Of a DNA stretch of 64,000 nt, positions 12,268 through 61,957 are shown one piece after another. How positions within the stretch are numbered: position 1 is the stretch's first letter; each line of letters begins with the position of its first letter. This DNA is from a virus (taxonomy: Duplodnaviria; Caudoviricetes): IMG/VR virus record IMGVR_UViG_3300046167_000476, positions 813 through 64,812 of that record, one strand, 5' to 3'. The notes under the pieces were generated by a model, which was not told where the DNA came from, made no database searches, and saw only the letters and a program-made list of their open reading frames with translations. A program made the translations under genes and the position numbers.

Positions 12268-12491
12268 TACTGAAGATCATACTCAATGGATATTGCCATG
12301 TTAGAATTAAACTTCTTCCATGGCATTACCTCATTGTTTTTTTTGATATGTATATTATAAGAATTGTCTTCTTCGTCTAGCAGTATATAAGCTATCCTGT
12401 GACCGCCATAAACTTCTTGACCTACAGAGTAATGCATCGCATCATTTTTGTAGTCTGAACCTATGCTTATCTTTCTTATAATAGAACTCAC
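12264..12491 (-). CDS. Hypothetical protein
   Basis: 75 aa ORF translationally coupled to its neighbours. Confidence 0.6.
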   Translation of the reverse strand: MSSIIRKISIGSDYKNDAMHYSVGQEVYGGHRIAYILLDEEDNSYNIHIKKNNEVMPWKKFNSNMAISIEYDLQY

Positions 12492-12748
12492 TATTCCGCT
12501 ACTTGAAGAGTTTTTGATTCTTCAGCTTCTACCTTTTCAAAAGATCCATCAGCTAAGTTTACAGTGATATCACCGTATTGTTCCTTTAATTCTGATTTAA
12601 TTTCTTCTAACGCTTTAGCAGCTTCAAAATGTGCTCCTAAGAATTCTGCTTTTTTAGCTTCCAAGAAACCGATTTCAACTAATATAGCGTTAACCTTTCC
12701 TTGTCCTTCTTTTACTGATTTTAATTGTTCTTCTGTTAATTTTCCCAT
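12491..12748 (-). CDS. Hypothetical coiled-coil protein
   Basis: 85 aa; preceded by a late promoter motif. Confidence 0.65.
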   Translation of the reverse strand: MGKLTEEQLKSVKEGQGKVNAILVEIGFLEAKKAEFLGAHFEAAKALEEIKSELKEQYGDITVNLADGSFEKVEAEESKTLQVAE

Positions 12749-12777
12749 TTTATTTAATTTAATTGGTTATTTTTATA

Positions 12778-12806
12778 TATAATCACACTGTTTATTGTAA
12801 AATTAC
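12778..12806 (-). promoter_or_regulatory. Late promoter motif copy (GTAAT-N15-GTGATTATA)
   Basis: Upstream of the terminase/portal operon. Confidence 0.7.
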
Positions 12807-12831
12807 TCATTACGTAATTACTATACTTTAT

Positions 12832-13122
12832 TTACTTCAAAGCTACTATGTCAGTAGCAGTAGTACCTGTAGATAAAACATAGTCCACAATCACATTTAA
12901 AACCGATCCACTTTGAACGTTTTTAAATATAATAGCTTCGTTAGCTGTTGGAAGCCCTGAGCCAGAAGCCCCTGTTACACCAGAAAGTATTACCTTTACA
13001 TCACCACCGGTTCCTACGTACAAGCAAGAACTTTTTAAGTTAGTTGCTACACTTATTGTGTCGTTTTTAGTTACACTAGTAGCAAAAGTGCCAAAGTCTG
13101 GTTGATTTGCGTATTGTCCCAT
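12832..13122 (-). CDS. Head spike-base/decoration protein (RcGTA Rcc01079-like)
   Basis: LYVGTGGDVKV...FKNV.SG...V.STGTTATDIVAL pattern. Confidence 0.55.
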   Translation of the reverse strand: MGQYANQPDFGTFATSVTKNDTISVATNLKSSCLYVGTGGDVKVILSGVTGASGSGLPTANEAIIFKNVQSGSVLNVIVDYVLSTGTTATDIVALK

Positions 13123-13131
13123 TTTTTTTAT

Positions 13132-13539
13132 TTATTTATTTTTATTGAATAGTGGCCCTAGTTTGTCCACAATTTTTTCACCACTCCTACCTATTACATA
13201 ACCTCCAATACCTATTTCCAGTAAACCCCAAAATTGAGGTTCTAATGTAGGTGTTATTAGCTGTGCTGATAGTTGTGATATAAATTTAGTGTATATAATT
13301 ATAAAACCAAACGAAAGCATAAGTATTGGTCTCCAACTTCTCTGTAACCAATTACCACTAGCTTCAGCTACAATAATCTCAGTCTGCATTTTTTGGAGTT
13401 CTAGCTGAGCATCTTGTAACACTTTAAATATTTCATTTCTAGCATTTAATCTTTCTTCCTCGCTAGTGAATAGGTTGTCAACCACATCACCTACCTGTTT
13501 AAAAACTTTAGTACTGAAAAATTCTAATATTTTTTTCAT
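13132..13539 (-). CDS. Holin (3TM, GTA-type)
   Basis: WLQRSWRP motif followed by hydrophobic segments and GGYVIGRSGEK. Confidence 0.75.
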   Translation of the reverse strand: MKKILEFFSTKVFKQVGDVVDNLFTSEEERLNARNEIFKVLQDAQLELQKMQTEIIVAEASGNWLQRSWRPILMLSFGFIIIYTKFISQLSAQLITPTLEPQFWGLLEIGIGGYVIGRSGEKIVDKLGPLFNKNK

Positions 13540-13823
13540 TACATACGGTTAGGGTCGTAGTTTAATTTACCATTTTTAGTAATAGGTCTCGTTTTGCTTC
13601 TGCTAGTATCAAGATTTTTATCTAATTTCTTGAGGTTATCCCCAACTTTTTTTAAACCTCTTGTAACCATATTACCATCCTTGTTTTCGTCTCCTAATAT
13701 AGTGTCGCCACCAAAAATTCCATCTGTGTTTTTCTTTGGGCTTGGATCTTCTAATAAGTTTGGTGATAATCCTCTTCCTGTCTTAGGCATGTTCATTCTA
13801 CCTGGTGATTGTTTATAAGCCAT
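13539..13823 (-). CDS. Small basic hypothetical protein, possible capsid-internal protein
   Basis: 94 aa; N-terminus MAYKQSP. Confidence 0.55.
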   Translation of the reverse strand: MAYKQSPGRMNMPKTGRGLSPNLLEDPSPKKNTDGIFGGDTILGDENKDGNMVTRGLKKVGDNLKKLDKNLDTSRSKTRPITKNGKLNYDPNRM

Positions 13824-30298: not shown

Positions 30299-30340
30299 TT
30301 ACAAACAAAATAGTTTACATGTTGGATAATATAAATGTAA
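30299..30340 (+). promoter_or_regulatory. Early promoter motif E1
   Basis: TTACAAACAAAA-N12-TGGATAATA-TAAATGTAA. Confidence 0.8.
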
Positions 30341-30376
30341 TTAATAACTAATAATAATAACTTAAATAAATAAATT

Positions 30377-30607
30377 ATGTCAATCTTAAAATCAAAAAGA
30401 TTTGTTGTTCGCAAATCACTAATCGGAAAAAATCAAATCATTGAAGTAACATTCAAAAATGGAAAAGTTGCAAAGTATAATCATGATGATGTATACAATG
30501 TTATGAAAACAAAACTTGAAACTATGAACTGTTGGGCTAAGTATAAATCATACACTTCATCTACTTCAATGCCAGTTATTGCTCGTGAACTACTAATCAC
30601 TGAGTAG
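30377..30607 (+). CDS. Early hypothetical protein
   Basis: 76 aa; first ORF after E1. Confidence 0.7.
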   Translation: MSILKSKRFVVRKSLIGKNQIIEVTFKNGKVAKYNHDDVYNVMKTKLETMNCWAKYKSYTSSTSMPVIARELLITE

Positions 30608-30617
30608 TATATAAAAC

Positions 30618-30664
30618 TGTGACAATAGCCTGTTACTATCTTAATCTAATAGGCTAATGTCACA
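30618..30664. promoter_or_regulatory. Operator-like palindrome O2
   Basis: TGTGACAATAGCC-N21-GGCTAATGTCACA. Confidence 0.75.
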
Positions 30665-30848
30665 CTTTTTGTAACACTACATTTAGTGTGTTCCATTGCA
30701 GGCCTGATTCTGAAACAAGATCGGAAGAGTATACTCCACTTTACACCATATTTAACTATAAGTAAAACTTATTGAAATGTGTTATACTATAAGAGATAGT
30801 GCATAAGATCTCTCTAACTATTTTAACTAACAAATAATTATACACCTT

Positions 30849-30890
30849 TTACAAACAAAACAATATTCTATCTGGATAATATATATGTAA
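30849..30890 (+). promoter_or_regulatory. Early promoter motif E2
   Basis: TTACAAACAAAA-N12-TGGATAATA-TATATGTAA. Confidence 0.8.
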
Positions 30891-30907
30891 ACAAACTAAT
30901 AAATAAT

Positions 30908-31045
30908 ATGAAATTTATACTAACTTGTAATAATGGTAAAAAAATAGATATGTCAACAGATATACTATTACAAATGGAAGGTAAGATATCTCGATGTGAA
31001 GTACTTACAAGAATTAACTTTTATAAATCAACTAACAATGACTAA
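30908..31045 (+). CDS. Small early protein (45 aa)
   Basis: MKFILTCNNGKK...; ATG directly after E2; below the ORF-track cutoff. Confidence 0.55.
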   Translation: MKFILTCNNGKKIDMSTDILLQMEGKISRCEVLTRINFYKSTNND

Positions 31046-31310
31046 AACTTATAGAAATATAGAATATACTTATATAGTAAGTGAGACTTGGAATGGTATA
31101 AAGTTTGATAACTATCACTGTAATGACAAAAACTTACTAGATGGTTTAGATACAAGTATGTTTACTAAACTAAGTGAGCAAGATATGAAAGATGAAATAG
31201 ATCACTTGATCGATCAAAGACAAGATCTATTACAAATACAAGATCTAGTGCATGAAGCGCGAAGAGATTGGTATTCTAATACATACTCAGGTGAGTATAC
31301 AGGCGACTAA
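31038..31310 (+). CDS. Early hypothetical protein
   Basis: ATG at 31038 (MTKTYRN) overlapping the previous stop. Confidence 0.6.
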   Translation: MTKTYRNIEYTYIVSETWNGIKFDNYHCNDKNLLDGLDTSMFTKLSEQDMKDEIDHLIDQRQDLLQIQDLVHEARRDWYSNTYSGEYTGD

Positions 31311-31336
31311 AATTAATAACTAATAAATAATAAACA

Positions 31337-31435
31337 ATGAGAAAATTTTCACACAAAGTACTATTTGTACTAAAACGAGCAAACAAAGTATTAACTAAAC
31401 TAGGTAGTGCTGCTGCTTGGGCGATAAGAAACTAA
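31337..31435 (+). CDS. Small basic amphipathic peptide (32 aa)
   Basis: MRKFSHKVLFVLKRANKVLTKLGSAAAWAIRN with an A-rich leader. Confidence 0.45.
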   Translation: MRKFSHKVLFVLKRANKVLTKLGSAAAWAIRN

Positions 31436-31437
31436 CC

Positions 31438-31617
31438 ATGAGTTTATTCTATTGGTCAGAAGAAACTATAAGTCACTTTAAATTTATAAGTAGCTATTTA
31501 AGTAAAAAACAAACTATTCGCAAGATCGAGCTATTTGTAGAGATGGATTGTATTCCTGCAGAGGAAGAGACTGAAGACATGCTAGTGCAAGATCTAATAA
31601 GTGTAATATACAAGTAA
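31438..31617 (+). CDS. Early hypothetical protein
   Basis: ATG at 31438 (MSLFYWSEE). Confidence 0.55.
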   Translation: MSLFYWSEETISHFKFISSYLSKKQTIRKIELFVEMDCIPAEEETEDMLVQDLISVIYK

Positions 31618-31622
31618 AAAAG

Positions 31623-31664
31623 TTACAAACAAAATAATATTTCTATTGGATAATATAAATGTAA
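31623..31664 (+). promoter_or_regulatory. Early promoter motif E3
   Basis: TTACAAACAAAA-N12-TGGATAATA-TAAATGTAA. Confidence 0.8.
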
Positions 31665-31681
31665 ATAATAAATAATAAACT

Positions 31682-31876
31682 ATGCAGAAAATTAAATTTC
31701 AAAATTCAAGTACAATAAAACTCAACGGTACAACCTATAAAGGCTATACTGTAGGTAATCTACCAAAAAGATTTGCCTTCATCTATGACGAGAACAAAGA
31801 TCAAGAAGGTATTACTCAATGGTTCAACTACAAAGGTTTAACTTATGTTGAAAAATCTACTAATCCATGGGCGTAA
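31682..31876 (+). CDS. Early hypothetical protein
   Basis: 64 aa; first ORF after E3. Confidence 0.65.
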   Translation: MQKIKFQNSSTIKLNGTTYKGYTVGNLPKRFAFIYDENKDQEGITQWFNYKGLTYVEKSTNPWA

Positions 31877-32133
31877 TATCTAACCCGAGAACTATGAAAG
31901 AGCTACTAGCTTACTCGGAACTACAGAAAAAATCACGAGCAGACGGGCATAGACGTACTGTTCGAGCAAACGGTGCATGTGGTGGACTCACTGACAAAGA
32001 ATACAATAGTATTACAACTCGTCAGAAATCTAACTTCGCAAAAGCTAGAAAGTTCACCCACAGCCGTATGTGGCAAGAAACTCACAAGAAGTTTGACACA
32101 AAGCAATTATTAATAATAAAAAAGACACTATAA
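31867..32133 (+). CDS. Early hypothetical basic protein
   Basis: 88 aa coupled ORF. Confidence 0.55.
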   Translation: MGVISNPRTMKELLAYSELQKKSRADGHRRTVRANGACGGLTDKEYNSITTRQKSNFAKARKFTHSRMWQETHKKFDTKQLLIIKKTL

Positions 32134-32345
32134 TGAGTGATTCAGTAAGTAAATGGCACGAAATACAAGAAGATAAACAAACACTATCAGAAGAACATAT
32201 AGATTCTATTGCTATGCAAATGGATTTAAAGATGTGGGAAGGTTTTAGCAGTATTATAAGTAACACTTTAGAATACGAGCAAGCTATGTATATAACAGAC
32301 AGAGATATACTATTAATAAAAGAAAGAGTTAAAAAATACTTATAA
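32133..32345 (+). CDS. Early hypothetical protein
   Basis: 70 aa; TAATG coupling. Confidence 0.6.
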   Translation: MSDSVSKWHEIQEDKQTLSEEHIDSIAMQMDLKMWEGFSSIISNTLEYEQAMYITDRDILLIKERVKKYL

Positions 32346-32470
32346 TGAACGAAGAACCAGTTAAAAACCCGTGGGATTTAGTATACGAGGCGTATAAAGA
32401 TCACTATTCAAGAGAACAGATAGATGAAATGCTATTTAATGAAGTACAAGAACTAATAAATCAATTATAG
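32345..32470 (+). CDS. Small early protein (41 aa)
   Basis: MNEEPVKNPWDLVYEAY...; TAATG coupling. Confidence 0.5.
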   Translation: MNEEPVKNPWDLVYEAYKDHYSREQIDEMLFNEVQELINQL

Positions 32471-32472
32471 AT

Positions 32473-32727
32473 ATGAAAGAGTGGATGAAACAAGATACAA
32501 GAATTAACGGATGGGATTTTGAGTATGTAGAAAATGACTACGACGATAAGTTTTTTCAGTGCAGAGGAGAAGTAATGTATGACGACGAGCACGATGAAAT
32601 GCCAGAACCAAGTCTTTGGCGAGCAGCTTTGGAATTAGAGAAAAAATTGTTTGCAGATGGTTTAATTTGCGAAGCAACTCACAGTGAAAAAGGTTGGGTC
32701 GAAGTAATAATATTAAATAAAAAGTAA
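32473..32727 (+). CDS. Early acidic hypothetical protein
   Basis: 84 aa ORF. Confidence 0.6.
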   Translation: MKEWMKQDTRINGWDFEYVENDYDDKFFQCRGEVMYDDEHDEMPEPSLWRAALELEKKLFADGLICEATHSEKGWVEVIILNKK

Positions 32728-32921
32728 TGAGTAAAATGAAAGAAATAGACGAAATAGCACAAGGTATTGCTGACGTCACTAAGGAATTAATGGAAGACAG
32801 TATTGATTGGCAAATAGCAGATCAACCTGTTAACGGAGACGAGTATAACGATCTACATAGTTATGTAATGAATAAAGCTATAGAATATCTTTACAAACAA
32901 AACAAAATAACTACTGGATAA
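32727..32921 (+). CDS. Early hypothetical protein
   Basis: 64 aa; TAATG coupling; 3' end overlaps E4. Confidence 0.55.
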   Translation: MSKMKEIDEIAQGIADVTKELMEDSIDWQIADQPVNGDEYNDLHSYVMNKAIEYLYKQNKITTG

Positions 32922-32932
32922 TATATATGTAA
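32891..32932 (+). promoter_or_regulatory. Early promoter motif E4
   Basis: TTACAAACAAAA-N12-TGGATAATA-TATATGTAA. Confidence 0.8.
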
Positions 32933-32950
32933 TAAATAAAATAATAAACT

Positions 32951-33139
32951 ATGTACTGTAAATGCGGCGACGAAGTCCACCCTTATCGACTAAACTTAGG
33001 ATATAAAACATGTCCTCCTTGTTCTGAAGTAAAAAAACATTCTTATGTTCCTATTACTTACCACAAAACAGGTAATACAATTCAAATAGTAAGCCAAGAG
33101 CTAAGTGCGCTTGTACATAAATCACAGAGAAGAAGATAA
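32951..33139 (+). CDS. Small Zn-finger protein (DksA/TraR-C4-like spacing)
   Basis: CKCG...RL.LG..TCPPCS; first ORF after E4. Confidence 0.5.
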   Translation: MYCKCGDEVHPYRLNLGYKTCPPCSEVKKHSYVPITYHKTGNTIQIVSQELSALVHKSQRRR

Positions 33140-33140
33140 T

Positions 33141-33594
33141 ATGAAAACACTAACACAACACCAAGCTCACCGAAAAGAGCTAGAAGACAAATACGTAGAG
33201 TTAATGCTTGCTAAGTACCCACTACTAACTGATGTAACTACAAATACACAGCGTAGAAAATGGTACTAGAACGTTCCAACTTAACCATAAAAAGTATGGT
33301 TTATGTAAATTCGCTACATACAAATCAGGTATGGTGCGTAAAATAATAAGAAGTAGGTTTAAGGATTTATCTTGCTATCAACTAAATCCTCAAAGATCAA
33401 TAACTAATTATTATATGACACTTAGTGACAATAGCGAGTTAAATATGAGGTCTTATGTGGGTAAACAAAGAGTGAAAATAACTAACGGCCTTGCTAGATT
33501 AGTGTATCTAGAAAAATACTTAATAAAAAACTACGACTTAGACTCAGTGCAAGACGTAATCGAGGTTGATGGTGTATTATATAAAAGAATATAA
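33141..33594 (+). CDS. Early hypothetical protein with a frameshift near 33260
   Basis: MKTLTQHQ... joins the 33331-33594 ORF if one A of an A-run is removed. Confidence 0.5.
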
Positions 33595-33782
33595 ACACGG
33601 TGGAGGGCTTAGTACGGCTACGGTATTTTAAGTAGTTAAGCTAACGAAGATCTTCTAATGTGTTTATTAGTCAGCGAATAAATAACGACCGCGACAAAGT
33701 GTGGGGAATGTCTGGCGAATAGTAGAGTTTTACGGTATATAGCTCTCTCTAAATAAGAAAACCGACAACTAGGTCAGGCAAA
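33595..33782 (+). ncRNA. Candidate structured non-coding RNA
   Basis: ORF-free, GC-enriched spacer with several stems, including TGTCTGGC/GTCAGGCA, and a possible CGGT/ACCG pseudoknot. Confidence 0.4.
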
Positions 33783-33810
33783 AAATATAAATGTAATTAA
33801 ATAAATAAAA

Positions 33811-34059
33811 ATGTCAAGATTAACAATTTACGAAAGGCTAAAACCTGAAATCAAACAAGCCCTAGCTTCACAAGAAAAAAAATACAGTACTTCTGTAAGA
33901 TCAATTATAACTACGCTTAGCAGTACTAAGTTCTATAGTGACTTAAAAATATGTGACGTTAGCTCGTTATATACTTTTGCTGATATAGAGTTGCACAAAG
34001 TTTCTGCATGGGATTTTAAGTATGGTGATAACATTTTAATATCAGAAAAAAATGACTAA
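33811..34059 (+). CDS. Early hypothetical protein
   Basis: 82 aa ORF. Confidence 0.6.
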   Translation: MSRLTIYERLKPEIKQALASQEKKYSTSVRSIITTLSSTKFYSDLKICDVSSLYTFADIELHKVSAWDFKYGDNILISEKND

Positions 34060-34708
34060 GTATATAACAGATGAGTTAATAGCTAAAAAAATGGCTGAAA
34101 AAGGTTGGATTGAAGGCTGTGACGATGAGCATGCTAGAAACCAAGTACTTGTACACTATGAGTGTGAAGTAACTGATCAATGGCAAAACCCTGACTTTAG
34201 TGTATACGAAGAATCAACAGCTGATGGTTACTCTGTGTGGATTGCTACTGCTAATGACAAAAGTATAAATGTTAGTGAAGATGTATACTACTACGAAAAC
34301 GAACTTACAGACGTATTATACGAAGCTATACCTGATTACAGCAATATATACTGTGACAACTACGACTTTGTTGAAGACGCTATTACTAGACACTATGAAG
34401 ATTTAATGTGTAGAATAGAAGATGAAACTATAGATGAATTGCTTGATGAAGGCTACAACCATAAAATAACTGACCCTATAAATACACTGCAATACATAGA
34501 GATGATCTCTCAAGATTGTAGTTTTTTAGACGGTAGCTCAAGAGCTATAAATCTAACAGTAGATGAAGACTATAGGTACTTAAACTATGCTAGTCAAATA
34601 ATTAAAGACAGAGCCAGGTATGAGATTGTAGCTAATCATTATGGTCTAACTATCGAAAGAGCTGTTAAAGGTGAATTAATATTTAAAGAATTAAAAAATG
34701 AAAACTAA
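34052..34708 (+). CDS. Highly acidic hypothetical protein
   Basis: 218 aa, Asp/Glu/Tyr-rich. Confidence 0.65.
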   Translation: MTKYITDELIAKKMAEKGWIEGCDDEHARNQVLVHYECEVTDQWQNPDFSVYEESTADGYSVWIATANDKSINVSEDVYYYENELTDVLYEAIPDYSNIYCDNYDFVEDAITRHYEDLMCRIEDETIDELLDEGYNHKITDPINTLQYIEMISQDCSFLDGSSRAINLTVDEDYRYLNYASQIIKDRARYEIVANHYGLTIERAVKGELIFKELKNEN

Positions 34709-34961
34709 AGAACAAACAGTACCTAAGTGGTTTAAAGGTATGATTTACGACAAAGGTGAATTAGTAACAAACCCTTTCAGTGGAGATAGCTATGAACTCA
34801 ATGGTGTTGAGCTATCAATGTATGACTTCATAATGGGTAGTCAATATGTAATGGAGGTAGCACCTAAAACAGTTACTGAAAAACAAATTAACGAGTTTCA
34901 TAAAGCATTATCTTGGTTTCGTAAGAACAACAGTGATGCGTATATGACGTTACTTGATTAA
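34698..34961 (+). CDS. Conserved phage hypothetical protein
   Basis: NPFSG...YDFIMG...WFRKNN..AYMTLLD. Confidence 0.65.
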   Translation: MKTKEQTVPKWFKGMIYDKGELVTNPFSGDSYELNGVELSMYDFIMGSQYVMEVAPKTVTEKQINEFHKALSWFRKNNSDAYMTLLD

Positions 34962-34962
34962 T

Positions 34963-34995
34963 TTACAAACAAAATTTATTCACTAATGGATAATA
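34963..34995 (+). promoter_or_regulatory. Early promoter motif E5
   Basis: TTACAAACAAAA-N12-TGGATAATA. Confidence 0.8.
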
Positions 34996-46322: not shown

Positions 46323-48040
46323 TGTGGAACAATGAATGGAAAAAAGGAGAAGATTACCCTTCGTGGGGTAATACGGACGTATACAAGAAGACAATATCCG
46401 GGGGATATTTACTTGACGGAGAAACGCCTAGAGAGGCATACCAAAGAGTCGCTAAAACAGTTGCTCGTAGACTTTATAAGCCGGAAATGGCTGAAACCTT
46501 TTTTAATTATATTTGGAATGGTTGGCTTTGTCTTGCTTCTCCTGTCCTTTCCAATACTGGTACAGATCGCGGTCTTCCTATTAGTTGCTTTGGTATCGAT
46601 GTTGCTGACTCTATACAAGACATAGGACAGAAAAATCTAGAGATGATGCTACTCGCTAAGCACGGCGGTGGAGTTGGTATCGGTATAAATCAAATCAGAC
46701 CCGCTGGCGCTAGAATAACAGGTAATGGAACATCAGATGGAGTCGTACCTTTCTGCAAGATATATGACTCAACAATTCTTGCAACTAATCAAGGGAGTGT
46801 CCGTCGTGGAGCTGCCTCAGTTAATATCAACATTGAACATGATGACTTCGAGGAGTGGCTTGAAATCAGGGAACCTAAAGGAGATGTTAACAGACAGTCG
46901 CTTAACTTACATCAGTGCGCAATTGTTGGTGACAAGTTTATGCGTAAGCTTGAACAAGGAGATAAGGACGCAAGATCTAGATGGAGTAAATTACTTAGAA
47001 AACGAAAAGCAACTGGAGAACCGTATATTATGTTTAAAGGAAATGTTAACAAAGCAAATCCAGAAGCATATAAAGACAACGGATTAAAAGTACATATGAC
47101 TAACATATGTTCAGAAATTACATTACACACCGATGAGAATCACAGCTTTGTTTGCTGTTTATCATCATTAAATTTAGCAAAATATGAAGAATGGAAAGAC
47201 ACTAACCTTATATACGACGCCACGTGGTTTCTTGACGGGGTTATGGAGGAATTTATTCAAAGAGCAAAAGGACTTAGAGGTTTTGAAAATGCCGTTCGTT
47301 CTGCTCAAAAAGGAAGAGCAATCGGACTGGGTGTTCTTGGATGGCACACATATCTCCAAGAAAAAGGAGTTCCTTTTGAAGGTTTACTTGCTCAGTTTGA
47401 AACTAGGAAAATATTTTCACAAATTAAAATTGAAAGCGAAAGAGCATCAATGGACTTGGCAGAAATTTACGGAGAGCCTTTATGGTGTGTTGGTACCGGT
47501 ATGCGTAATACTCATCTCCGTGCTATTGCTCCTACTGTTTCTAATAGCAAGCTTAGTGGTAATGTTTCACCGGGTGTTGAGCCGTGGGCTGCAAATGTTT
47601 TTACAGAGCAAAGTGCGAAAGGGACTTTCATTAGGAAAAACCCGACGTTAGTTAAATTATTAAAGAAACACAAACTAAATACAAATGAAACGTGGAATAA
47701 AATACTGGCTGACGGAGGTAGCATACAGGATATCAATGCTTTGGATAATATTACTATGGGGCACGACATCCCAGTTAAAGAGGTTTTTAAAACTTTTAAA
47801 GAAATTAATCAACTAGAGTTAGTTAATCAAGCTGGTCTTAGGCAGCAATACGTGGATCAGTCGGTTAGTTTAAACCTAGCTTTTCCATCTGAAGCTACAC
47901 CTAAGTGGTTAAATAAAGTTCATTTTGATGCTTGGAAAAAAGGTGTTAAAACCTTATATTATACTAGAACAGAATCTGTTTTACGCGGTGATATAGCTCA
48001 GCAAGCTATGAGTGAAGATTGTTTAGCTTGTGATGGCTAA
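46322..48040 (+). CDS. nrdA: Ribonucleotide reductase class I alpha subunit without an ATP cone
   Basis: ISCF, GGGVG, NICSEI, CCLSS, APTVSNS, KTLYY and C-terminal CLAC; start at 46322. Confidence 0.93.
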   Translation: MWNNEWKKGEDYPSWGNTDVYKKTISGGYLLDGETPREAYQRVAKTVARRLYKPEMAETFFNYIWNGWLCLASPVLSNTGTDRGLPISCFGIDVADSIQDIGQKNLEMMLLAKHGGGVGIGINQIRPAGARITGNGTSDGVVPFCKIYDSTILATNQGSVRRGAASVNINIEHDDFEEWLEIREPKGDVNRQSLNLHQCAIVGDKFMRKLEQGDKDARSRWSKLLRKRKATGEPYIMFKGNVNKANPEAYKDNGLKVHMTNICSEITLHTDENHSFVCCLSSLNLAKYEEWKDTNLIYDATWFLDGVMEEFIQRAKGLRGFENAVRSAQKGRAIGLGVLGWHTYLQEKGVPFEGLLAQFETRKIFSQIKIESERASMDLAEIYGEPLWCVGTGMRNTHLRAIAPTVSNSKLSGNVSPGVEPWAANVFTEQSAKGTFIRKNPTLVKLLKKHKLNTNETWNKILADGGSIQDINALDNITMGHDIPVKEVFKTFKEINQLELVNQAGLRQQYVDQSVSLNLAFPSEATPKWLNKVHFDAWKKGVKTLYYTRTESVLRGDIAQQAMSEDCLACDG

Positions 48041-48118
48041 AGGCTAAAAGTTATGACTTTTTTATACATATAAAAACCAATGTGTATAAAAAACTCAATA
48101 TGCTATACACATTAAATA

Positions 48119-48150
48119 GAAAAAGGGCTCTCAATACGAGGGCCCTTTTC
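48119..48150. terminator. Bidirectional rho-independent terminator where the two arms converge
   Basis: GAAAAAGGGCTCTC-AATAC-GAGGGCCCTTTTC; a second inverted repeat TTTTTATACAT...ATGTGTATAAAAA at about 48058-48093. Confidence 0.8.
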
Positions 48151-48193
48151 ATTATAGGAATTGCAGGTATGGTACGCCTGATAATCTTTACTC

Positions 48194-48514
48194 CTATTTA
48201 TTCAATTCATTAATTACTTTTTGTATATCTTTGGGATCTACTGTTAACTTCATTGTTAAGCCGGCTTGCCATATTTTTTTTAGCTTTTTATTTTTATCAA
48301 ATAATATTATAGCAGGTACTGAACTTATAGCTTCTTTAAATTTTTTAGGCTGTGAATCGTAGTCCACTTCTAAGACTTTGACACCTTTTATTAGCTTTAA
48401 AAATTGATAGTCGTTTTTGTGGTTCCAGTCTGAATTCATATAAAGCAATGTAGCTTCTTGAGAAAACATGTTAAAAGATAATATAAATGCGATTAAAATT
48501 AAAATACTTTTCAT
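48194..48514 (-). CDS. Exported thioredoxin-fold-like protein lacking CxxC
   Basis: Signal peptide; VLEVDYD...ISSVPAIILF pattern. Confidence 0.45.
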   Translation of the reverse strand: MKSILILIAFILSFNMFSQEATLLYMNSDWNHKNDYQFLKLIKGVKVLEVDYDSQPKKFKEAISSVPAIILFDKNKKLKKIWQAGLTMKLTVDPKDIQKVINELNK

Positions 48515-48516
48515 GG

Positions 48517-48798
48517 TTATTTGTTTATGATCTCAAATAGTTTTTCATCTATTTTGTCTAGTTTTTTACTGTTATTGTCTACTTTTTCATTTATGTTTAT
48601 TATAGTTTCTCGAACAAGTTGATCTTTTAAATCGTATTCAGTTCTATCTATTGGTGGTTTAGGTAGTTCCTTAGCTAGCTGTATATCTGATTGCAAAGCA
48701 AAATATACTGAAGCTAAAGATATAGCGCCACCAACTATTATACCTATTGTTTTCAAGTCTAATGTAACTTGAGTACTCTCTGATATTTTATTAGTCAT
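48517..48798 (-). CDS. Membrane-anchored coiled-coil protein, possibly lysis-related
   Basis: One TM segment plus a coiled coil. Confidence 0.5.
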   Translation of the reverse strand: MTNKISESTQVTLDLKTIGIIVGGAISLASVYFALQSDIQLAKELPKPPIDRTEYDLKDQLVRETIININEKVDNNSKKLDKIDEKLFEIINK

Positions 48799-48830
48799 AG
48801 TTATCTTAAGTAAGTAATTTTATGTTTTGT

Positions 48831-48954
48831 TTATTTTGGCACGCAATTAGGAACTTTTCTATTTCCCTTCTTCTTCATACCAACTTGCTTATAATTTTTC
48901 CAGCAAGGACCCTTTTTTAATCAACTTCTTTAGTAATGGTGTGTTTTCTTTCAT
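48831..48954 (-). CDS. Small basic protein with a PCWKNYKQVGMKKKG..KVPNCVP motif; frameshift near 48910
   Basis: Motif recovered after correcting one extra base. Confidence 0.5.
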
Positions 48955-48973
48955 AATATCTTAGTTAAATTCA

Positions 48974-51900
48974 TCAATGTTTAATTCCCTCCGGATTAAG
49001 TTTTTTTCTTTTTTGTAGTTTTCTTTTTCTTACTCTTTTTATCTCTTTTCTATACCCTAACTCCCAATCTTGCCAACCAGCAGCCATAGCTATTCTTTCC
49101 CACATATCATAGTCTTCATTTAAAGCACCTTGTATATTTTGTGATTTACGTAAAGCTCTATCAACAGGAATGTTTGTCGTAGCTGAAATAACATTAGCTA
49201 TAGCCATATATGCTTGATTATCTAAACTAAATTTCATGTCATCAAATGCTCCATACTCAGCTGCTTTTAACGCGTTTGCTATTTTCTTATACTTAGATCC
49301 CACTGTTGGAGATATGCTGACTACTTCTTTGATAGCTTTAGAGTATTTAGGATTCTTTTTGCTAGACTCACTGTTTATAACCATAAGAGCATTCTTCACT
49401 TGAGCTGTTATTGCCCCTGGTATACCAGTACCTCTAAGTAATGAGTCAGCCATACCGTTAGCAACTCTTCCTGATTTAGATAATAGCTTTTCATCTTGTT
49501 CGTCATCAGCAAAAGCTAAGCCAAATAAAGCATTTTGTATTGCGTTAAATATTAAGTTTTGCACAAAGCCGTAGTAAACAATCTTAGATGTATTCTCTCT
49601 CCAATCACCTCTTTTATTAGCAAGGTCTAGCATAGCTTTTTTCTGCAGTCTAGCATACTGCATTGGTGTATTAGCAAAAGCTAAAACAACTCTACCTAAG
49701 TTACCAGCCTGTTGTTGACTTATCTTGTCTGTTCTAGACGACTGTTGAGATTGTTCAGATATCTCCTTGAAATCTACAAAAGCTTTTTCTTTAGCCTCCA
49801 TCTCAGATAGCCCTTGCTTTTTATAAGTATTTATTCTATTTCTATAGAAAGTTGCACCACCCGAAGCTATAGCAAAACTATCAGCATACTTAGTAAATAC
49901 AAAACCTTTTTTTAGTATTGTATTTATTATACCTTTAGCACCTGAGTCAGCAGCTATTTCAGCCTCACTTACATTTAACTTTAATCCATCACGTCTAGCT
50001 GTTAAGTAGTCAGAGTTCATTATCTCTAAGAAATCTTTAGAATATTGCTTTACATCTACTAACCTAGCACTGGCTTTTAAAGGATTGTTATCTGTCCAGT
50101 TTATAAAGTTTATACTAGACAATGTCTGTAAAACTGCTGATCTTGTGTTTAAAAACATTATAGCACCCACAGAATTATTTATATAATCCAAAGCTCTGTC
50201 ACCCGCAGTATTCTGTGAACTTCTATTTCTACCAGACTGCATTCTCTGTAAAGTACCTTCTAATGCTTTTCTATATTTCTTACCATAAGCTGCCTCTAGC
50301 TTATTCAAATTAGCTTCTGAAAATATTTCATCTTTGTTTTGTTTCCACTGCTCTAAATACTTAGCTCTTTTAACTTTACCAAGCAGTGTTCTAGCATCGC
50401 TAGTTAATGTACCACTAAGCCAATTTTTACCTGGTTCAGCCCAACCATCACCTTTAGTTGTTGATAAGAGTTCATTAGCAAAAGCTTCATACGTAGGGTT
50501 ATCTTTTATAACTTTATTTAGTTCAGCTAAATCAGATTTGCTTAAACCAGGAACTTCTACACCCATTTTTGTCCACATGCGAACTCTTAAAGCCTGCTCA
50601 TTTGTAAAACCTGTTTCATTCTTCTTTCTTAGTTTTTTAGGTATAACACCTAATCTACTTTTCAAAGCTCTAACATCATTGACTAACGACATTTGATCTC
50701 TAATGATATTGTCTTCAGCTCTAGCGAATGGATCGAATAAGTTTTCTTTGTAGAACTTAAGGGCGTCTTCACCTTTTTTACCTTTTGGCAGAGTCTTATA
50801 TAGTAGACCAGCAAAATCCTCAGCTGTTGGTGATATAAATATATCAAACCTGCCTTTTCCTTTACCCATTATCTCAGCTTTAGCTGCTCCAAAAGTTTTT
50901 TCTGAAGCTATGCCTGTTTTTTCTTGTATTATATCGTTAAATGTTTTTCCTAGCTTTTCTGTGCTAATTGCTAATTGTACTTTACTCTTAACATCTACTA
51001 CACTTAATATATCTTTAACAGCTTTAACATTACCTAAGTGATCATCAGCAAAGTAAAAGTCATTATAACCTTGAGCTGCTTTCTCAAGCATCCAGTTAGC
51101 TTTAGCCGATGGAGCTCCATTTGCTAAACCTGTTATGTTTTCTAACGGTATATCTAAACCTAGTCCTTTTAAAAAACTTCTTATAGCTGGAGCTGCATTT
51201 GCTGGTCTAGCAGTTAACACGAACATATCTCTTTCTCCTGGGCTTTCACTTATAAACTTTGCCACCTCAAATAAAGGTCCTTTTTTACCTTCCATTACTT
51301 TACTAAACTCAGAGAAATCAAACTTAGCTCCTTCTGCTTCTAAGGACTCAGATCTTTTAGCAAATTCATTTGCATTAAGTTTTCCTTTAGTACCGTCAGG
51401 CATTGTATAAAGCACGTTAGATTTAGATCTAGCTAGTGTATCATCGAAATCAAAAACTCTAGCTTTTTTAGTTTCTTTTAATTTCTTCTGAGCCAACCTA
51501 ATAGCTTTATCTCTGTTGTTTAACTTGTCGAGTAATTCAGCATTACTAGAGTTCTTGTTATCTAAAGTACCTGCTTTCTTAGACAACTCAACATTAGCTT
51601 TCCAACTAGACTTAACATCTGCTTTATTATTTAAAGAACTTTTTAGTATAACTTCATTAGATTTACTAGGTTCTAAAGATATTGCAGCAACTTTATCTTT
51701 CATCCAAGGCACATTCAGCTCTCTTAATTTTGCTCCAACTCGCTGAGCATTCTGTGTCATTAACTTATCGTATAAAGTTTCTTTAAAGCCACTTTCAACT
51801 GTTACATAGTCCTTTAAATTTTCGAGATCTAAAACCATCCTAGCTAAACCAGAGGTGTTTGTAGTACCGCCTAGCCTATCTATTACGTCTAGGTATTTTT

Positions 51901-54900
51901 TAAAAGATATAATGCCCTTATAGTCGTTCATTATTTTTTTACCATCTTTCATCCATCTACCTTCTACAATAGCTTTAGCTTCTTGCATCGACTGCTCTAA
52001 AGAAGACTTTAAATGTTCCAACTTCATTCTACCAGGTTCACCTGTTTTCTTTACAGCCATGATTGGCACAAACTGTCTACCATAACCAGAAGTAGCTCCA
52101 CTATTTTCAGCCGCTAATTGATATATAACTTTTGCTCTTTTTTCGAATTCAGCTGGAGTTTTAGCATCATATAAATATCTTTGCTTAGCAACACCCATAG
52201 CGTAATAAACATCTGATTTATATGCATTATCTTTAGAGTTTATGTATTTATTAAGAACATTTATATCTCCAGTATTTTGAAATTTTTGTAACGCATTCTT
52301 TTGCTGTGCATCACTCATAAAATCTCCAGGCTCTATATTATCAAATACACCTTTCTCATACAATTTACCTAGATTATCTACTATTCTTTCATACTGACCT
52401 TTACTAAGATCACTCTCTGATATCAACTTACCTTCTGTGGTTATTTTTCTAGCATCCTTACCTACATTTCTAGCGGTACCTCTACTAGTACTTCCAAACG
52501 ACTGTAGTAGAACCTCTTTAGTAAAATATTTCTGTAAATCTTCAGGGTAATACTTTGAAAGTTCACTTATTCCATCTAAAAAGGTTTCAAGTCTAGCTGT
52601 ATCAAATATAGATCTTTTCATCTCAGGACCTTCAGTACCTTTTATAAATACTCCTTTTTTAAACTTACCAGTTTTTCTTTTAAAAGTCTCTGTTGAACGC
52701 ATAGACTTACCGGTGTTGCCATCTATGATATTGCTTATATCAACGCCTTTAGGCGCACCATTTATCTCCGCTATTTTAATATCAGCTTTATCTGAAGTCT
52801 TAAATGTTGGAGCGTCAGCTTTGCCTTCTTCAGCCTTAGCTATATTATCTTGTATAATTTCGCTTTCAAATCTTTCTACAAAAGTAGGATTAGTTTCTCT
52901 TAACTTTTCTCTATCTACTAAAAAATTACCAATTAATCTTTTAATAGTAACTTCGTTTAGTCCAGGTGTATTTTTTAATTTACCTAGCACCTGTTGAGCT
53001 AGCATAGGATTTTTACCATCAGCTAACTTCTGTAACTCTATAGCTGTTGCTCCTTCTATTTTCATATTTGATCTAGCAACGTTATTCACCAGACCTCTAA
53101 ACACTAACTCCGCTAAGCCTTTTATCTGTTGAACTTGTTTATCTCTATATAATTTACCTTCTGGCTCTTTTAGTAAATCTTTTACATCCTTTATACTTAT
53201 GTTTTTCTTTAATTCATATACGTTCTTACTACCTATTTTTCTTTTATTGTAAAATGCTTCTTGTATAGAGTTTGGCACACCTGTAGACTTTTTATCCAAC
53301 GTGTAACCTTCAGGTAAAATATTAAGTACCATTTGAGCATTTTTGTTTAGCTCAGATCTTAATTTTCTAAAACCTTCCATAGAACCTTGGGGTAAGTTTC
53401 TAGCGGGTACCGTGAACCACTTTGGTAGTAAATCTCCTTTAACCTTTTTACCATCAGATGTTGTTTTATCTTTTTCACGTATATCGTATGCCTTCGCTAG
53501 AGCTTTAGCAGCGTTTTCCCCTAGTCTTAAAGATTTATATGTTTCTTTAGTTAAGCTTTTTTCTTGTAAATCTTTCTGTATTTCAGGTACTAAATCATTT
53601 ACAACATCTATACTTAATTCTAGTTTTTTAGGATCTGTTTTTTTTGTTTTCCGAAACAATTTTTTCATCAAAATCTCTAGTCTCCTCAGACATCACAGAT
53701 TGTGCTTCTTTACTTTCAAGATCTTTATTAAATAAGTCACCTTGCTGGCCTAGTCTTTTTAGTATATTACCAAGTCTACCTCCACCAAACGCACCGCCAC
53801 CAAACAAGGCTTGTCTAGCATAAGCGCCAAACGGCACGTCTTTTAATTTAGCATCTCTTTTTAAATAAGTACCGAGAATTTTATCGTATATCTCTGATCC
53901 AACCTCCATTTCAAACATCTCTCTTGATACACCTAATCCTTTTACAAATTTTCTATTTACAAAGCTTTGTATTAAACCTTGATTATTTTCATAAACCTTA
54001 CCTATAAGATCCGTTTTGTTTCCAGTTGATTCAAACTCTTCAAAAGCTTTTTTATTTGCATTAGATAGGTCTAAAGACTCTTGTTTTAACTCTTTTTGAG
54101 CAGTTTTATCTATGTTTAATACTTTACCAGTCTGTTTCTCAATTAGTTTCTTACCGTCTTTAGTTATTTCTATATCTTGAAATCGCTTTATTAATTTTGG
54201 GCTATAGTTACCTTTACCAAAGTCTTTACTTAGTCTAGATAAAAACTTGACAACAGCATCAGGATTATTTAGTTCAGGTAATAAAACCTTACCTAGCTTT
54301 GTATTTTCTAAAGCAGTACCTGTTAAAGATTTTTCTAAAAAAGTATTTATATTTTGCTTTAGAGATCCTAAGACGTTGTTTTCTATTAACATGTCTCTAT
54401 TTTCAGGTCTACTTAGCAAGTCAATTAAGTTAGCGTTAAATTCCTCAAAAGTTGAATCCTTATCTTGTGTTTTTTCGTAAGCTTCTTTAACTGCTTCAGG
54501 TAAGTTTTCTATATTTCTTACTTCTCCAGTTCTTGGATCAACAGTTTCAAAATTCATTTTACCAACAGACTTAGCTAATCCTTCTTGTAGTGCTTTTTGT
54601 ACACCTACATCTTTACCGAAAGTTAGACGCGAAACAACGTGATATATTTCATGAGGAAGCGTACCTTCATTCATTTTAGAAACATCAACATTTACGTGTA
54701 GTTTACCATTACGTTTTGTAACAGCTGCTGATTCTCCTTCACCTAGCTTCATACCTCTACCGTTGGTAGATACATTCATAGTAAAAGCCTCTGTGCCATT
54801 TTCTTTTTTATACTGCTTGTTGAATTTCTGTAATAAACCTTGAGTCTCCGCTGCCAACACGTTTTTATCTAAGAATCTTTCTCTATTTTCAGCTACTCTT

Positions 54901-57701
54901 ATTTGATTTATTAATTCATTTCTTAATTGAAATTGGTTACCTAATTGATCTGTCGCATCTCCTTTTTCTAACCTACTAGTTATTTCTTTGTTTGTTTTAA
55001 GTAATAGATTTCTTTTAGACTGCATAGTCAAACTCCTGTCAGCCTTACTAGCATGTGTTAATCCAATCATACTAAACTGCAAAACCTCCATAAAAGTGTG
55101 CTTAGCCCAGTCCTCCATATCACCATACTTCTCCTCTACAAAAGTGTCGAAAGATTTTTTGTTTTGAAGGTCAGCTATTAGGGCTTCTAATGGAGCAGCT
55201 GTTTGTGCACCAGCAGCACCACCTAAACCGGAGTATAAACCTTTTTCTAAAGCAGTATTCATCGCTGCGGCTCCAGAGAAACCTTTAAACACATTAGTAG
55301 GTAATATTTTTCTCATAGCGTGACCACCAATTACAAAACCAGCACCTGCGCCAGTAGGCATATCAACGCCAAAAATAGGATATAGTAACGCCATCTTACC
55401 TTCTTCTTGAGCTCCTTGAATAAACAATGCTTGGGCCTTGTTGAATGCAGTACCTGTGGCTTTACTGAAGCCTTTCGACTTAGCGTATGCATCAATACTC
55501 ATTTTAGCTTTTTTAGCTCTAGCTGCCATAATGGCTCTAGATACAGGTGTTACGCTGTTTCTACCAGCTTTAGCTAAGTAGGTTACGTTTTTTAATTTAC
55601 TTAAATAGTTAGCCATACCAAAAGCGTTACCCATACCTCCAGTCATAGCACTAACTAAACCTAATTCCGCGATCATAGGTACAAAACCACCTAGACCAGT
55701 CCAAAACTGTTCTCCGAAGCCCTGCTTGAAAGAATCCATTTGCTCAGCAGATAACTCAAAAGGCTTTTGATCTGGTTCTAATGTTGTATTTATCTTACTT
55801 ATTAATGCCTCTGCATCATTCAAGTCATCTCTATCTGTTCTAAATAAATTATCTTTTCTAAAACTATCAGAACCAGCATTACCTTGTCCAGGCATTGCGT
55901 CTAGTGCACCAGCTAAAAAATTACCAGCTTGACTTACAACATCGTCAGCTTTTATTGAGCCTGGATCTACATTCAAAAGATACAATTGCTTCCATGCGGC
56001 GTGCTCTGTAGACAGTCTTTTTTGAGTTTGTCTTGTGTTTTCTACGTATCTATGCAAATCACTCATTTGAACAGTAGCTTCACCGTTTTTAGCCTCAGGT
56101 TTATCTATTTTTAAAGTATTTTTAACTTCATTAGAAGGTATAGATGATAAGCTAGATAACAAGTCCTTTAACTTAACACCTTTTATAACTCCAGCAGAAC
56201 CTTCTTTTTTACTTATTGAATAACCTTTATCGTAAAGACTAGCCATCCATATGTTTGGAGTAACCTGTATGTCAAACTCTTTAGTGTTTATCTCTTCTTG
56301 AAAACCACTAAATTCAGCCAAGTGTATTCTGTAATCATTTTGTACTGTTTGAGAGTCTGAGGTGTCTAGTTTCTTTTTTAACTCAACTTTAGCTATATCG
56401 TAGTCTTTTGTTAAATCAACAACGTCTATACCACTTGCTTTAGCTAATGCAGGTGAAATTCTAGTTCCGTCTGGGGCAAATAAAAACTCAGCATCTTCAT
56501 CTATAGCTTGTTTTAGTAGAAGCGAAGATCTTTCTTTTAGTTTTTCAAATTCATCTGATAAAGCACTTTGAGACACATCACCAACACCTGTATTAGGTTG
56601 ATTTAGGCTTTCTTTTATTTTAATTAATCTATCATTAACCTTAGCAAGTTCTTTTTGTTTAGGGTCTTTTATACTATTTATATGTTGTAACTTCTCTCTG
56701 TTGCTAGCTTCTAACCAATTTCCAGACTCTTTAAGTGGTTTAACATATTGCTCAATGATATTATATTCATTTAATTGCTCTTCTTTAGCAGACATGTCTT
56801 GTAACATTTTATCTACTAATTTATCAGGTTGAGTACCTGTTAAACCAATGTCTTCAGAATTTATACCACCAAAAAAACCAGAGCCTGATATGTCTCTATT
56901 TTCAGCATATTTCTCAACAGAGTTTTTTCTTACATAATCTCTAAAACCATCTGACTGCATCAAAGAGTTTATAGGCATAGTGGGATCATAAGGAATATCT
57001 TCAGATTCAATATAATCATAAGCCAATTGCTCTATATTGTCAGTTATAGAACTTTCAAATTTTTTAATATTTTTTTGATTTTGTACATTTAAATCCTCAT
57101 TGAAGTTGTCTTTTAGAAAATTATTTATAACTTCTTGAGGATCGTCCCCAATACCTTGCTGGGGAGAGGTTTTACTACCTGACAAATCGAACGGATCAGC
57201 TTGCCTCATACGCGCTTGAGCCATAGGATTTGAAAGACCCTTAGTATTTACCGTTATAGATTCACCGTTTAAAGCTTTTATAGTTACGTTATTTACATTT
57301 GAAGTAAATTCAAATCCACCATTCTTACCACCATACATTTGATTATAAGCGTTAGCTATATCTTTAGGTGATTGTTTTTTAAAATTTGGAATTTGAAATA
57401 TTTTACCGTATTTTCTATCTTTAGGTGGTTTAACTTTTACTGAATCCAAAGAAGTATCTTCCGAAGGTAACTCCGTAACGCCTGCTTGTGATGCTGTCAT
57501 TGGCTGCACTACATCCGCATCCGCTGCAGCGCTTGTTGGAAAATCCTGTGGTTCGTTTTCAACCTCTTGCTCTATAACCATACCTTTTTCATCTAGAACG
57601 CCCATAAAAACAGCATTACTAAATTTACTTAAAAAATCTTGCTCCTTAGCTTCAGATACATCATAAGGATTACCGTCGACTTCATATCTTTTTACTGGCA
57701 T
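48974..57701 (-). CDS. Giant (~2900 aa) internal virion/ejection protein with HExxH, sigma-region-2-like and HAD segments; frameshift near 53640-53670
   Basis: The 1357-aa and 1565-aa ORFs overlap at T-homopolymers; last and largest gene of the GNAT-pilot-ejection cassette. Confidence 0.7.
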
Positions 57702-60583: not shown

Positions 60584-61957
60584 TTAATAAGCAGATGTCA
60601 CATAATCTGATGACACTGCAAATAATTCAAGTGGCAAACTTCTGTTGTCACTATCTGATTTTATTGTAACTGTTGAATAATAACCCTTAACACCAGTCAT
60701 ACTAGCACCAAATACAACTTCTCCAGTAGTAGCTGGACTAGAGTTAACTAAATTAGCGTAGTACTTACCTTCTTTTTTATCAAACCCAGCATGTACTTTT
60801 ACTCCATAAGTTGGATCTATATAAGCACCATCGTCAAAACTTAGCACAGGTTTAGACGTGTCATTTGACTCAAAACTTCTAGCCGCATTAAAGCTTGAAA
60901 CTTCCCAGCCATTAGAGCCTTCGTAGTTCACAGTTTTAAATACTTTTGATGTACTAGGGCTTGGATTAAACACGAACTCTATAGATGAATCGTATTGAAA
61001 TCCGTATAAGTTATTTCTAAGTGCTGTTGGTGAATAGTGTTGCCATAATTTACCGCTTTTAACAGAGTAGTAATTACTACCTAAGCTAAAAACCTGCTCT
61101 GGGTTGTAGTCAAAGAAACTAGTCCAACCAAGTACAGCTTCGTCAAAAGACAATGTATTATAACTACTTGTTTTTTGTAAGCTTAAAACATACTGCTTAT
61201 TATGAATATCCCAAGCTCCAATAGCTTTTCCAGGTATAGATATATTATCTAAAGTTGATAATTCATCTCTAAAATAATCAACCATACCATAGTTAGATAT
61301 TTCAGTTATACCATCTCTTGATAATCTTAAAACAGCATTTCTATTTTTATCTGTAAAGTATTTTCTATAACCATATACAGCAAAGCTTTCTGGGTTTTTA
61401 CTTATACCGAAGTTTCCTGCGTAAGGTACTATTTGACCTATAACTAAGTTAGATGAAGTAACACTACCGCCTCCTTCAGCGGAGTATATAGCGTCTTTAT
61501 CTATCAATGCTCTACTGACTTTATTTTCTTGAAATACAATTAAGTTAGTGTCTTCAGCATAAAGCTTTTGTATACTACCATTAGCTGGATCTACGGACTT
61601 TGTTATATCTTTACCAACACTAAATACATTAGTATCGTTTACACCTGTTCTAGAGTTAAATATACCTGAGTATATCATTGAGTTAGATCTAGTTGATGAG
61701 TTAGGCTCGTCTTCAACTAAATAAGCTCTAACACCGTAAGACACGTTTGTATTGTTGTAACCTCCTCTAATCCTAGCTTCTTCAACGTAGTAACTATAGT
61801 TTTGATTAACTGTGTTTGATGCTAAAACAGGGTAACCTACCAGCCTACACCTGCTAGGTACACCAGTGGATCCGTTCCAAACAGGAACATTACTATCGTT
61901 CTGAGTCTTCTTTAAGATAAAAGAGTTAAAAAACTTAACTTCTATTACTGCCGCCAT
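60584..61957 (-). CDS. Tail stabilisation/muzzle protein, C-terminal-like subunit
   Basis: GISKNPESFA.YG...YFTDK...VLRLS.DG, W.SFFDY.P and KVFKT..YEG motifs. Confidence 0.7.
   Translation of the reverse strand: MAAVIEVKFFNSFILKKTQNDSNVPVWNGSTGVPSRCRLVGYPVLASNTVNQNYSYYVEEARIRGGYNNTNVSYGVRAYLVEDEPNSSTRSNSMIYSGIFNSRTGVNDTNVFSVGKDITKSVDPANGSIQKLYAEDTNLIVFQENKVSRALIDKDAIYSAEGGGSVTSSNLVIGQIVPYAGNFGISKNPESFAVYGYRKYFTDKNRNAVLRLSRDGITEISNYGMVDYFRDELSTLDNISIPGKAIGAWDIHNKQYVLSLQKTSSYNTLSFDEAVLGWTSFFDYNPEQVFSLGSNYYSVKSGKLWQHYSPTALRNNLYGFQYDSSIEFVFNPSPSTSKVFKTVNYEGSNGWEVSSFNAARSFESNDTSKPVLSFDDGAYIDPTYGVKVHAGFDKKEGKYYANLVNSSPATTGEVVFGASMTGVKGYYSTVTIKSDSDNRSLPLELFAVSSDYVTSAY

Follow-up and report, generated by a model that had tools for sequence, protein, structure and literature searches.

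The window analysed here (the whole stretch of DNA, 64,000 nucleotides, positions 813 to 64,812 of the IMG/VR virus record IMGVR_UViG_3300046167_000476) comes from an uncultured marine phage of the Caudoviricetes and carries, on its minus strand, a giant gene (48974..57701, (-)) whose product is about 2,900 amino acids (aa) long. We report that a segment in the middle of this protein, described below as the sigma2-like domain, is conserved across the protein family and that its predicted fold resembles domain 2 of sigma factors (sigma2), the part of these proteins that clamps the beta-prime clamp helices of RNA polymerase (RNAP) and opens the -10 element. This likeness bears on how such a phage might begin to transcribe its genome, and we have tried to separate what the data establish about the domain from the various roles that could be proposed for it.

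The giant gene and its surroundings

The source record has 64,812 bases and a CheckV completeness of 100%. Among deposited phages, 86 of the 87 matches to its TerL are phages of Flavobacterium, Cellulophaga, Tenacibaculum or Maribacter, so the host is probably a member of the Flavobacteriia. As recorded, the giant gene is divided between two open reading frames (ORFs), P0001 (53628-57701, (-), 1357 aa) and P0002 (48974-53671, (-), 1565 aa), which share an overlap of 44 bases. The apparent frameshift between them is created by a homopolymer with one extra base (53638..53645, (-); eight A on the coding strand, seen as eight T in the strand shown). Two related loci, L002 and L003, which are 98% identical to the window in the sigma2-like domain, have seven A instead of eight, and a closely related protein, P0003, runs uninterrupted across the P0001/P0002 junction, again with a seven-A run. 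Logan contigs from all four runs compared (X1, X10 and X13 from DNA and X15 from an RNA library, belonging to four studies) have one base fewer at 53638, the three DNA contigs being otherwise identical to the record over 1001 bases; some of these four runs may be the record's own source, and the X15 contigs do not show transcription, as RNA libraries can contain DNA. The giant ORF is single in L003, L004, L006, L008 and L011 (2,917, 2,909, 2,871, 2,869 and 2,791 aa, respectively), and P0001 and P0002, in this order, are collinear with full-length homologues of 2,791-2,979 aa.

The extra base is missing from the relatives and from the contigs of every one of the four runs, so the split is an assembly error in the record and not biology, and the gene in fact encodes a single chain of about 2,900 aa. 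On the same grounds we reject both two separate overlapping genes and programmed frameshifting at the A-run. The preliminary description had noted a frameshift at about 53650: it was right about the place, and what lies there is a one-base error of the record, not a biological frameshift. L002 has a break of its own in the giant ORF, further downstream (at 10244-10260 of that locus, giving 2,608 + 523 aa), probably by another homopolymer or assembly error.

The giant gene lies at the end of a tail/muzzle operon. Upstream in the same operon is a gene for a tail protein of the "muzzle" type (60584..61957, (-); Pfam crAss_MUZ_C, 7.2e-14; phrog_14478, virion structural protein, 2e-52), and by this neighbour the giant gene is assigned to the virion module. 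Comparisons with deposited phages gave no match for P0001 (megablast and tblastn) and, for P0002, a single weak one, Tenacibaculum phage Gundel_1: P0002 aa 1220-1394 are 26.6% identical, over 11% of the length, to a 2,482-aa "structural protein" of this phage. The label is an annotation. From the position of the gene and this weak similarity we infer that virions contain the giant protein and that it is ejected together with the DNA. The Gundel_1 protein has no convincing copy of the sigma2-like domain (best independent E-value 0.006, in a one-sequence search and through a low-complexity alignment).

A conserved domain with the predicted fold of sigma domain 2

The peptide in which a sigma region 2 pattern had been recognised by eye is indeed encoded where it was placed: it runs from LIGKVYENN to RLGNILKRL, at P0001 aa 1232-1317 (53751-54008 of the window, (-)), in agreement with the 53740-54015 given before. 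The domain that we delimit around it is slightly larger (53727..54083, (-); P0001 aa 1207-1325), its helices being matched to sigma regions 1.2-2.4 with the help of an AlphaFold2 (AF2) model and of structure comparison by VIA-align. When P0001 aa 900-1357 (458 aa) were searched against 1.84 billion representative sequences, 32 proteins were found, many of them 2,400-3,057 aa long. Fourteen homologous stretches could be aligned, with 26-49% identity to the window sequence, and eleven columns of this alignment are invariant (N65, N66, G68, F89, V93, Y105, Y120, L125, R135, G137 and L140). A hidden Markov model (HMM) of the 14 homologues finds the domain in the giant ORFs of all ten related IMG/VR loci (E 1e-33 to 1e-65), and an HMM of the domain core, applied to both sets of homologues together, detects a copy in 18 of the 22 giant homologues tested. 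The segment is thus a domain conserved in homologous proteins, which is more than chance would give. Sequencing data from 16 studies contain it, and 12 of the 20 runs concerned are flagged as possibly having supplied the very DNA analysed here; a search of genome contigs found no relative of the domain.

The AF2 model of the domain is all-helical, with a mean predicted local distance difference test (pLDDT) of 73 that rises to 80-93 over model residues 35-145. Compared by VIA-align with 48,161 representative chains of the PDB, the model matches, at ranks 1-30 (Z 9.2-6.0), sigma, sigma/anti-sigma or holoenzyme entries, the exceptions by title being 3les (an engineered scaffold) and 9n9q; the identities of the matched chains are taken throughout from the titles of the entries. 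The highest Z-scores are those of SigB (9.2), pro-sigmaK (8.6), SigA domain 2 (8.3) and SigI6 (8.3), followed by sigma32 (8.2), the T4 late complex (8.2) and SigW (8.0), and AlgU, SigE, sigma28, BldN, sigmaE, CnrH, SigK, SigC, SigR and others are also found among the first thirty. Examples by entry are 8x6g_H (Z 9.2, root-mean-square deviation (rmsd) 2.7 over 91 aa), 4x8k_A (Z 8.3), 8hkc_E (Z 8.2) and 7d7d_F (Z 8.2). In total five chains reach Z>=8 and 40 reach Z>=5, and the first unrelated row stands at rank 31 with Z 5.9. Most rows have an rmsd of 2.4-3.7 Å over 77-95 residues, and the part of the model that matches sigma2 domains (residues 33-151) covers several solved ones nearly whole (80/80 residues in 8b3z_A, and 94/96, 88/89 and 77/78 in others). 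It is the uniformity of this list, together with the gap above the unrelated rows, that gives the comparison its weight, and not the Z-scores alone. A contrast model from the same protein, made for a block downstream of the domain, gave a best VIA-align Z of 4.6 with mixed matches.

Two other searches are less clear-cut. Foldseek against the PDB and BFVD returned nothing at E<=0.001 (all E >0.6), the weak top rows being mostly sigma factors. In the ESM-Atlas, PF04542 occurs in nine of the 30 nearest clusters (score 0.94, 130 of 256 features); when the named clusters are considered, it occurs in 21 of 30, the nine others forming a set without a common Pfam family, of which the cluster shown is named "sigma factor". 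The scores are 0.93-0.94 and 125-131 of the 256 features are shared, which is under the level usual for true family members. From the predicted structure, and above all from the sigma-related entries at ranks 1-30, we think that the domain very probably has the sigma2 fold.

A complex prediction was also made for the domain with residues 1-420 of RPOC_FLAJ1, the beta-prime subunit of Flavobacterium johnsoniae. This co-folding, proposed in the preliminary description, was rated as "weak support" (score 0.49, against 0.06 for the best control). Three runs scored 0.49, 0.58 and 0.49, at least 94% of the contacts agreed between them, and the partner had a pLDDT of at least 78 (ESMFold2). Of 80 solved complexes, 58 pass the mark that was passed here, as do two of 110 mismatches; scores of 0.60 or less are obtained by seven of the 80 solved complexes and by both of the mismatches that passed. 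No interface was given, and the pass may stem from the model's memory of solved sigma/beta-prime complexes.

Early promoters and a free-standing sigma factor

The window does contain five early promoters, E1-E5 (30299-34995, (+)), with a common motif, TTACAAACAAAA-N12-TGGATAAT, which can be written more generally as TTACAAAC(A/T)AAA...TGGATAAT. In related genomes the early motif occurs ten times in G001 (98%-related; 47295-55429, (-)), seven times in G004 (8215-13730, (-), in the form TTACAAACTAAATACGA-N7-TGGATAAT, with five further spacer bases, TACGA, fixed) and once in G003, with no occurrence of the reversed-pattern controls. The -7 promoter consensus of Bacteroidota is TAnnTTTG. This sequence is absent from all five early promoters, which are, as had been stated, unlike that consensus, and it is at chance level in the window (89 found, 90.5 expected); the copy at 30222 lacks a TTG at the expected spacing. 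Another promoter-like class, GTAAW-N15-GTAATWATA, has seven sites between 3156 and 61991 and fronts the structural and replication units.

A gene that had escaped the preliminary description encodes a free-standing phage factor of the sigma-70 family, P0004 (37721..38500, (+), 259 aa). It matches Pfam Sigma70_r2 with 19.3-19.8 bits, under the cut-off of 24, and phrog_351 "RNA polymerase sigma factor" at 2e-17. Public metagenomes contain thousands of its close homologues, carried on 60-73 kb contigs and in part labelled Tara; homologues are named as sigma-70 family proteins, and some carry PF04542 or PF04545. Deposited phages gave no match to P0004 by tblastn. One copy of the second promoter class starts 20 nucleotides past the P0004 stop. 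This gene order would allow a cascade, the early class being read by an injected module and the second class by P0004; a model in which the early class is read by P0004 itself, or by a host sigma factor, agrees with the data just as well. P0004 is a rival candidate for either class of promoters. In G004 its copy is 57% identical and lies in the same place with respect to the early promoters, whereas the sigma2-like domain is only 34% identical there.

What the domain might do

The reading that we favour, and whose chances we consider evenly balanced, is that P0001 aa ~1207-1325 are a conserved, extremely diverged copy of sigma2 that docks on the RNAP core of the host. The giant protein would be carried in the particle and leave it with the phage DNA; once in the cell, the domain would dock on the host core enzyme as sigma2 does, and the entering genome would thereby capture the polymerase of its host. 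The domain might then act as a minimal promoter-specificity factor for the early promoters, in the manner of T4 gp55, or else as a tether or as a competitor of host sigma factors.

Many observations weigh against this interpretation, and they should be stated together. The resemblance to region 2 of sigma70, proposed from a pattern read by eye, has held at the level of the predicted fold and has not been recovered by any profile. At E<=1, P0001 matches no Pfam family, Sigma70_r2 included; a sigma family of Pfam (at E<=10) or a sigma model of NCBIfam is matched by none of the 14 domain members in the alignment; phmmer and the domain profile find no sigma factor among PDB sequences; a PHROGs search of the giant protein likewise gives no sigma match. 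By profile cut-off, then, the domain falls outside PF04542. Alignment with hhalign gives a probability of 0.2% against the phage's own sigma family (P0004), and of 0.28% (E 0.22) against six E. coli sigma factors together with the P0004 family; the sole alignment reported keeps the register that had been drawn by eye (regions 2.1 to 2.3) and carries no statistical weight. Descent of the domain from a sigma factor is plausible and is not supported by these sequence tests. The AF2 model rests on 14 sequences only, and Z-scores of 6-9 (below ~13) can be trivial for helical bundles, according to the caution given by VIA-align itself. Four of the 22 giant homologues (P0027, P0028, P0033 and P0034) have no copy detectable with the domain-core HMM, and the domain stands mid-chain in a 2,900-aa protein.

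The same holds for the surfaces and the partner domains through which a sigma factor would meet its promoter. The helix that would correspond to region 2.3/2.4 is short and broken by a glycine-rich loop (GGGAFGGGR, 53775..53801, (-); located from the alignments and the secondary structure of the model, with GGGx[FY]GGGR in most members), after which comes another short helix, GNILK. The domain does not have the tryptophan pair of group-1 sigma factors; an hhalign alignment, which is not significant, places two of its residues, a conserved F and an invariant Y, opposite aromatic positions of E. coli RpoD. To judge from the model, the surface that reads the -10 element is, at best, remodelled. 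A region 4, whose presence the preliminary description had suggested looking for, was not found: PF04545 has no match in the six frames of the record, and the conserved block of ~230 aa downstream of the domain (52772..53464, (-); P0002 aa 70-300; 11 homologues by jackhmmer, alignment A3; motifs LLPxG...[ST]TGV...FYxK and GK[SN]) has no sigma3 or sigma4 family of Pfam in any of its six members. The AF2 model of P0002 aa 40-330, made from six sequences, has a mean pLDDT of 47 and gives mixed rows up to Z 4.6, and is too poor for its fold to be judged. Finally P0004, a complete sigma factor that is better conserved than the domain, could equally explain why the early promoters are conserved.

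The boldest proposal is that of the preliminary description, a true sigma factor that is injected with the genome, directs the host core enzyme to the TTACAAACAAAA-N12-TGGATAAT promoters before any phage gene is expressed, and so replaces the virion RNAP of crAss-like and N4-like phages, perhaps after release by the HExxH segment that precedes it. The sigma2 fold (by AF2, VIA-align and the ESM comparison) and the docking pass speak for it, as do early promoters that are nearly identical, have two boxes and are kept in a distant relative, the lack of TAnnTTTG in them and of its enrichment in the window, a gene order that suggests a cascade from the early promoters to P0004 and from there to the second class, and the precedent of T4 gp55 for a factor made of sigma2 alone. 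We nevertheless think it unlikely. A docking pass this low is wrong more often than not; for the upstream box, neither sigma4 nor another recognised DNA-binding domain was found, and the glycine-rich loop cuts into the helix that would recognise the -10 element; P0004 or an alternative sigma factor of the host could read the early promoters; the HExxH motif is not universal (QExxH in four of 17 homologues); and the module lies in the middle of 2,900 aa, in a protein whose packaging is inferred. We likewise think it unlikely that a widespread group of marine flavobacterial phages without a polymerase of their own injects, within a giant cargo protein, a pared-down sigma module that would load the host core enzyme onto the TTACAAAC...TGGATAAT promoters as the DNA enters, P0004 then taking over the middle and late genes.

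It could also be that the domain has a sigma2-like architecture and makes no contact with RNAP, being a structural or spacer module of a cargo or ejection protein, or a module for some other partner, the resemblance being a relic or a case of convergence. This would agree with the lack of significant sequence similarity to any sigma factor, with the fact that moderate Z-scores are common for helical bundles, with a docking result that is only "weak" and may be remembered from solved complexes, and with the four giant homologues that have no detectable copy. We consider it rather unlikely, all the same, since the first thirty ranks are uniformly sigma-related, with several matches to whole sigma2 domains about 2-3 Z units above the first unrelated row, since an independent language-model search also reaches Sigma70_r2 clusters, and since the helices corresponding to regions 2.1-2.3 are strongly conserved. 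That the fold itself is an artefact, an AT-rich, helix-prone sequence with a shallow alignment having been laid on a familiar fold and the match by eye being due to chance, seems to us very unlikely. The 14 sequences behind the model, the Foldseek and hhalign E-values (all >0.6, and 0.22) and the number of shared ESM features (125-131 of 256, below the usual family level) speak for such an artefact; against it stand the pLDDT of 80-93 over the core and of at least 78 for the partner folded with ESMFold2, the clear conservation of the domain, and the behaviour of another region of the giant protein, itself poorly conserved, which did not drift to sigma factors when modelled.

If a sigma2 module inside an ejected giant protein did capture the host enzyme at the time of DNA entry, this would be a third strategy of immediate-early transcription, beside the use of the host holoenzyme and that of a virion RNAP, and it would explain how phages with crAss-type tails and without a polymerase read early promoters that are unlike the host consensus. 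Literature searches, which covered open-access papers, turned up no account of a sigma factor delivered by the virion.

Likeness to known systems

The nearest structural relative is domain 2 of the sigma-70 family (PF04542), as seen in SigB, sigma32 and the extracytoplasmic function factors SigW, AlgU and SigE, to which the phage domain is alike in predicted fold and ESM features; it differs from these in having no profile similarity, in its place within ~2,900 aa, in its glycine-rich loop and in the undetected sigma4. T4 gp55, the minimal late sigma factor, consists of sigma2 only; it is synthesised in the infected cell as a small separate protein and works with gp33 and the sliding clamp. 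Chain F of 7d7d, which by the title of the entry we take to be gp55, aligns to the phage domain with Z 8.2 and an rmsd of 3.0 over 94 residues, and in both cases a phage carries a module of the sigma2 type, with no sigma4 found here, that could still confer promoter choice. In the present phage, however, this module is enclosed in a giant protein encoded in the virion module.

N4, crAss-like and jumbo phages inject an RNAP of their own, and other phages use the host holoenzyme on early promoters that resemble those of the host. With the virion RNAPs of N4 and of crAss-like phages the giant protein shares its size, a gene beside the tail/muzzle genes, a presumed ejection and a presumed link to early transcription; unlike them, it has no polymerase motif or family that we could find, and the host polymerase would be captured and not replaced. 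Free-standing phage sigma factors such as P0004 (phrog_351), which redirect the RNAP of the host, would belong to the same superfamily as the embedded domain and differ from it in being normal gene products (259 aa for P0004); between the two, hhalign detects no sequence relation.

Other features of the giant protein

No Pfam family was found on P0001, on P0002 or on three full-length homologues, and the giant protein has no sequence relative in the PDB. The preliminary description had seen no DxDGD motif of RNAPs. This is correct for P0001 and P0002, in which neither D-x-D-x-D nor D-x-D-G-D is present; in the record as a whole an RNAP of the T7 type (PF00940) was not found, in a search that shows little, as its control matched nowhere either. 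We considered the giant protein as an RNAP in its own right and set this candidate aside, no catalytic motif, Pfam family or PDB relative having been found.

A conserved region with an HExxH motif (54162..54884, (-); P0001 aa 940-1180) precedes the sigma2-like domain. The motif, HEIYH (54639-54653, aa 1017-1021), lies 215 aa upstream of the sigma-like segment, close to the ~210 aa first estimated. It is kept in 13 of the 17 homologues that cover it, the other four (P0027, P0030, P0034 and P0036) having QExxH, and a conserved EE[FY] is found ~70 aa further downstream in the alignment. The region may possibly be a zincin-like protease, by its motif, although it matches no Pfam family. Two of the homologues with QExxH, P0027 and P0034, also have no detectable sigma2-like domain, which hints at a joint loss of both features.

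Towards the other end of the protein, P0002 aa 728-912 (50936..51490, (-)) form a domain resembling the HAD phosphatases, with the motif DFDDTL and a match to phrog_415, polynucleotide kinase, at E 1.2e-4. The DFDDTL motif is kept in the relatives L002-L004, L006, L008 and L011.

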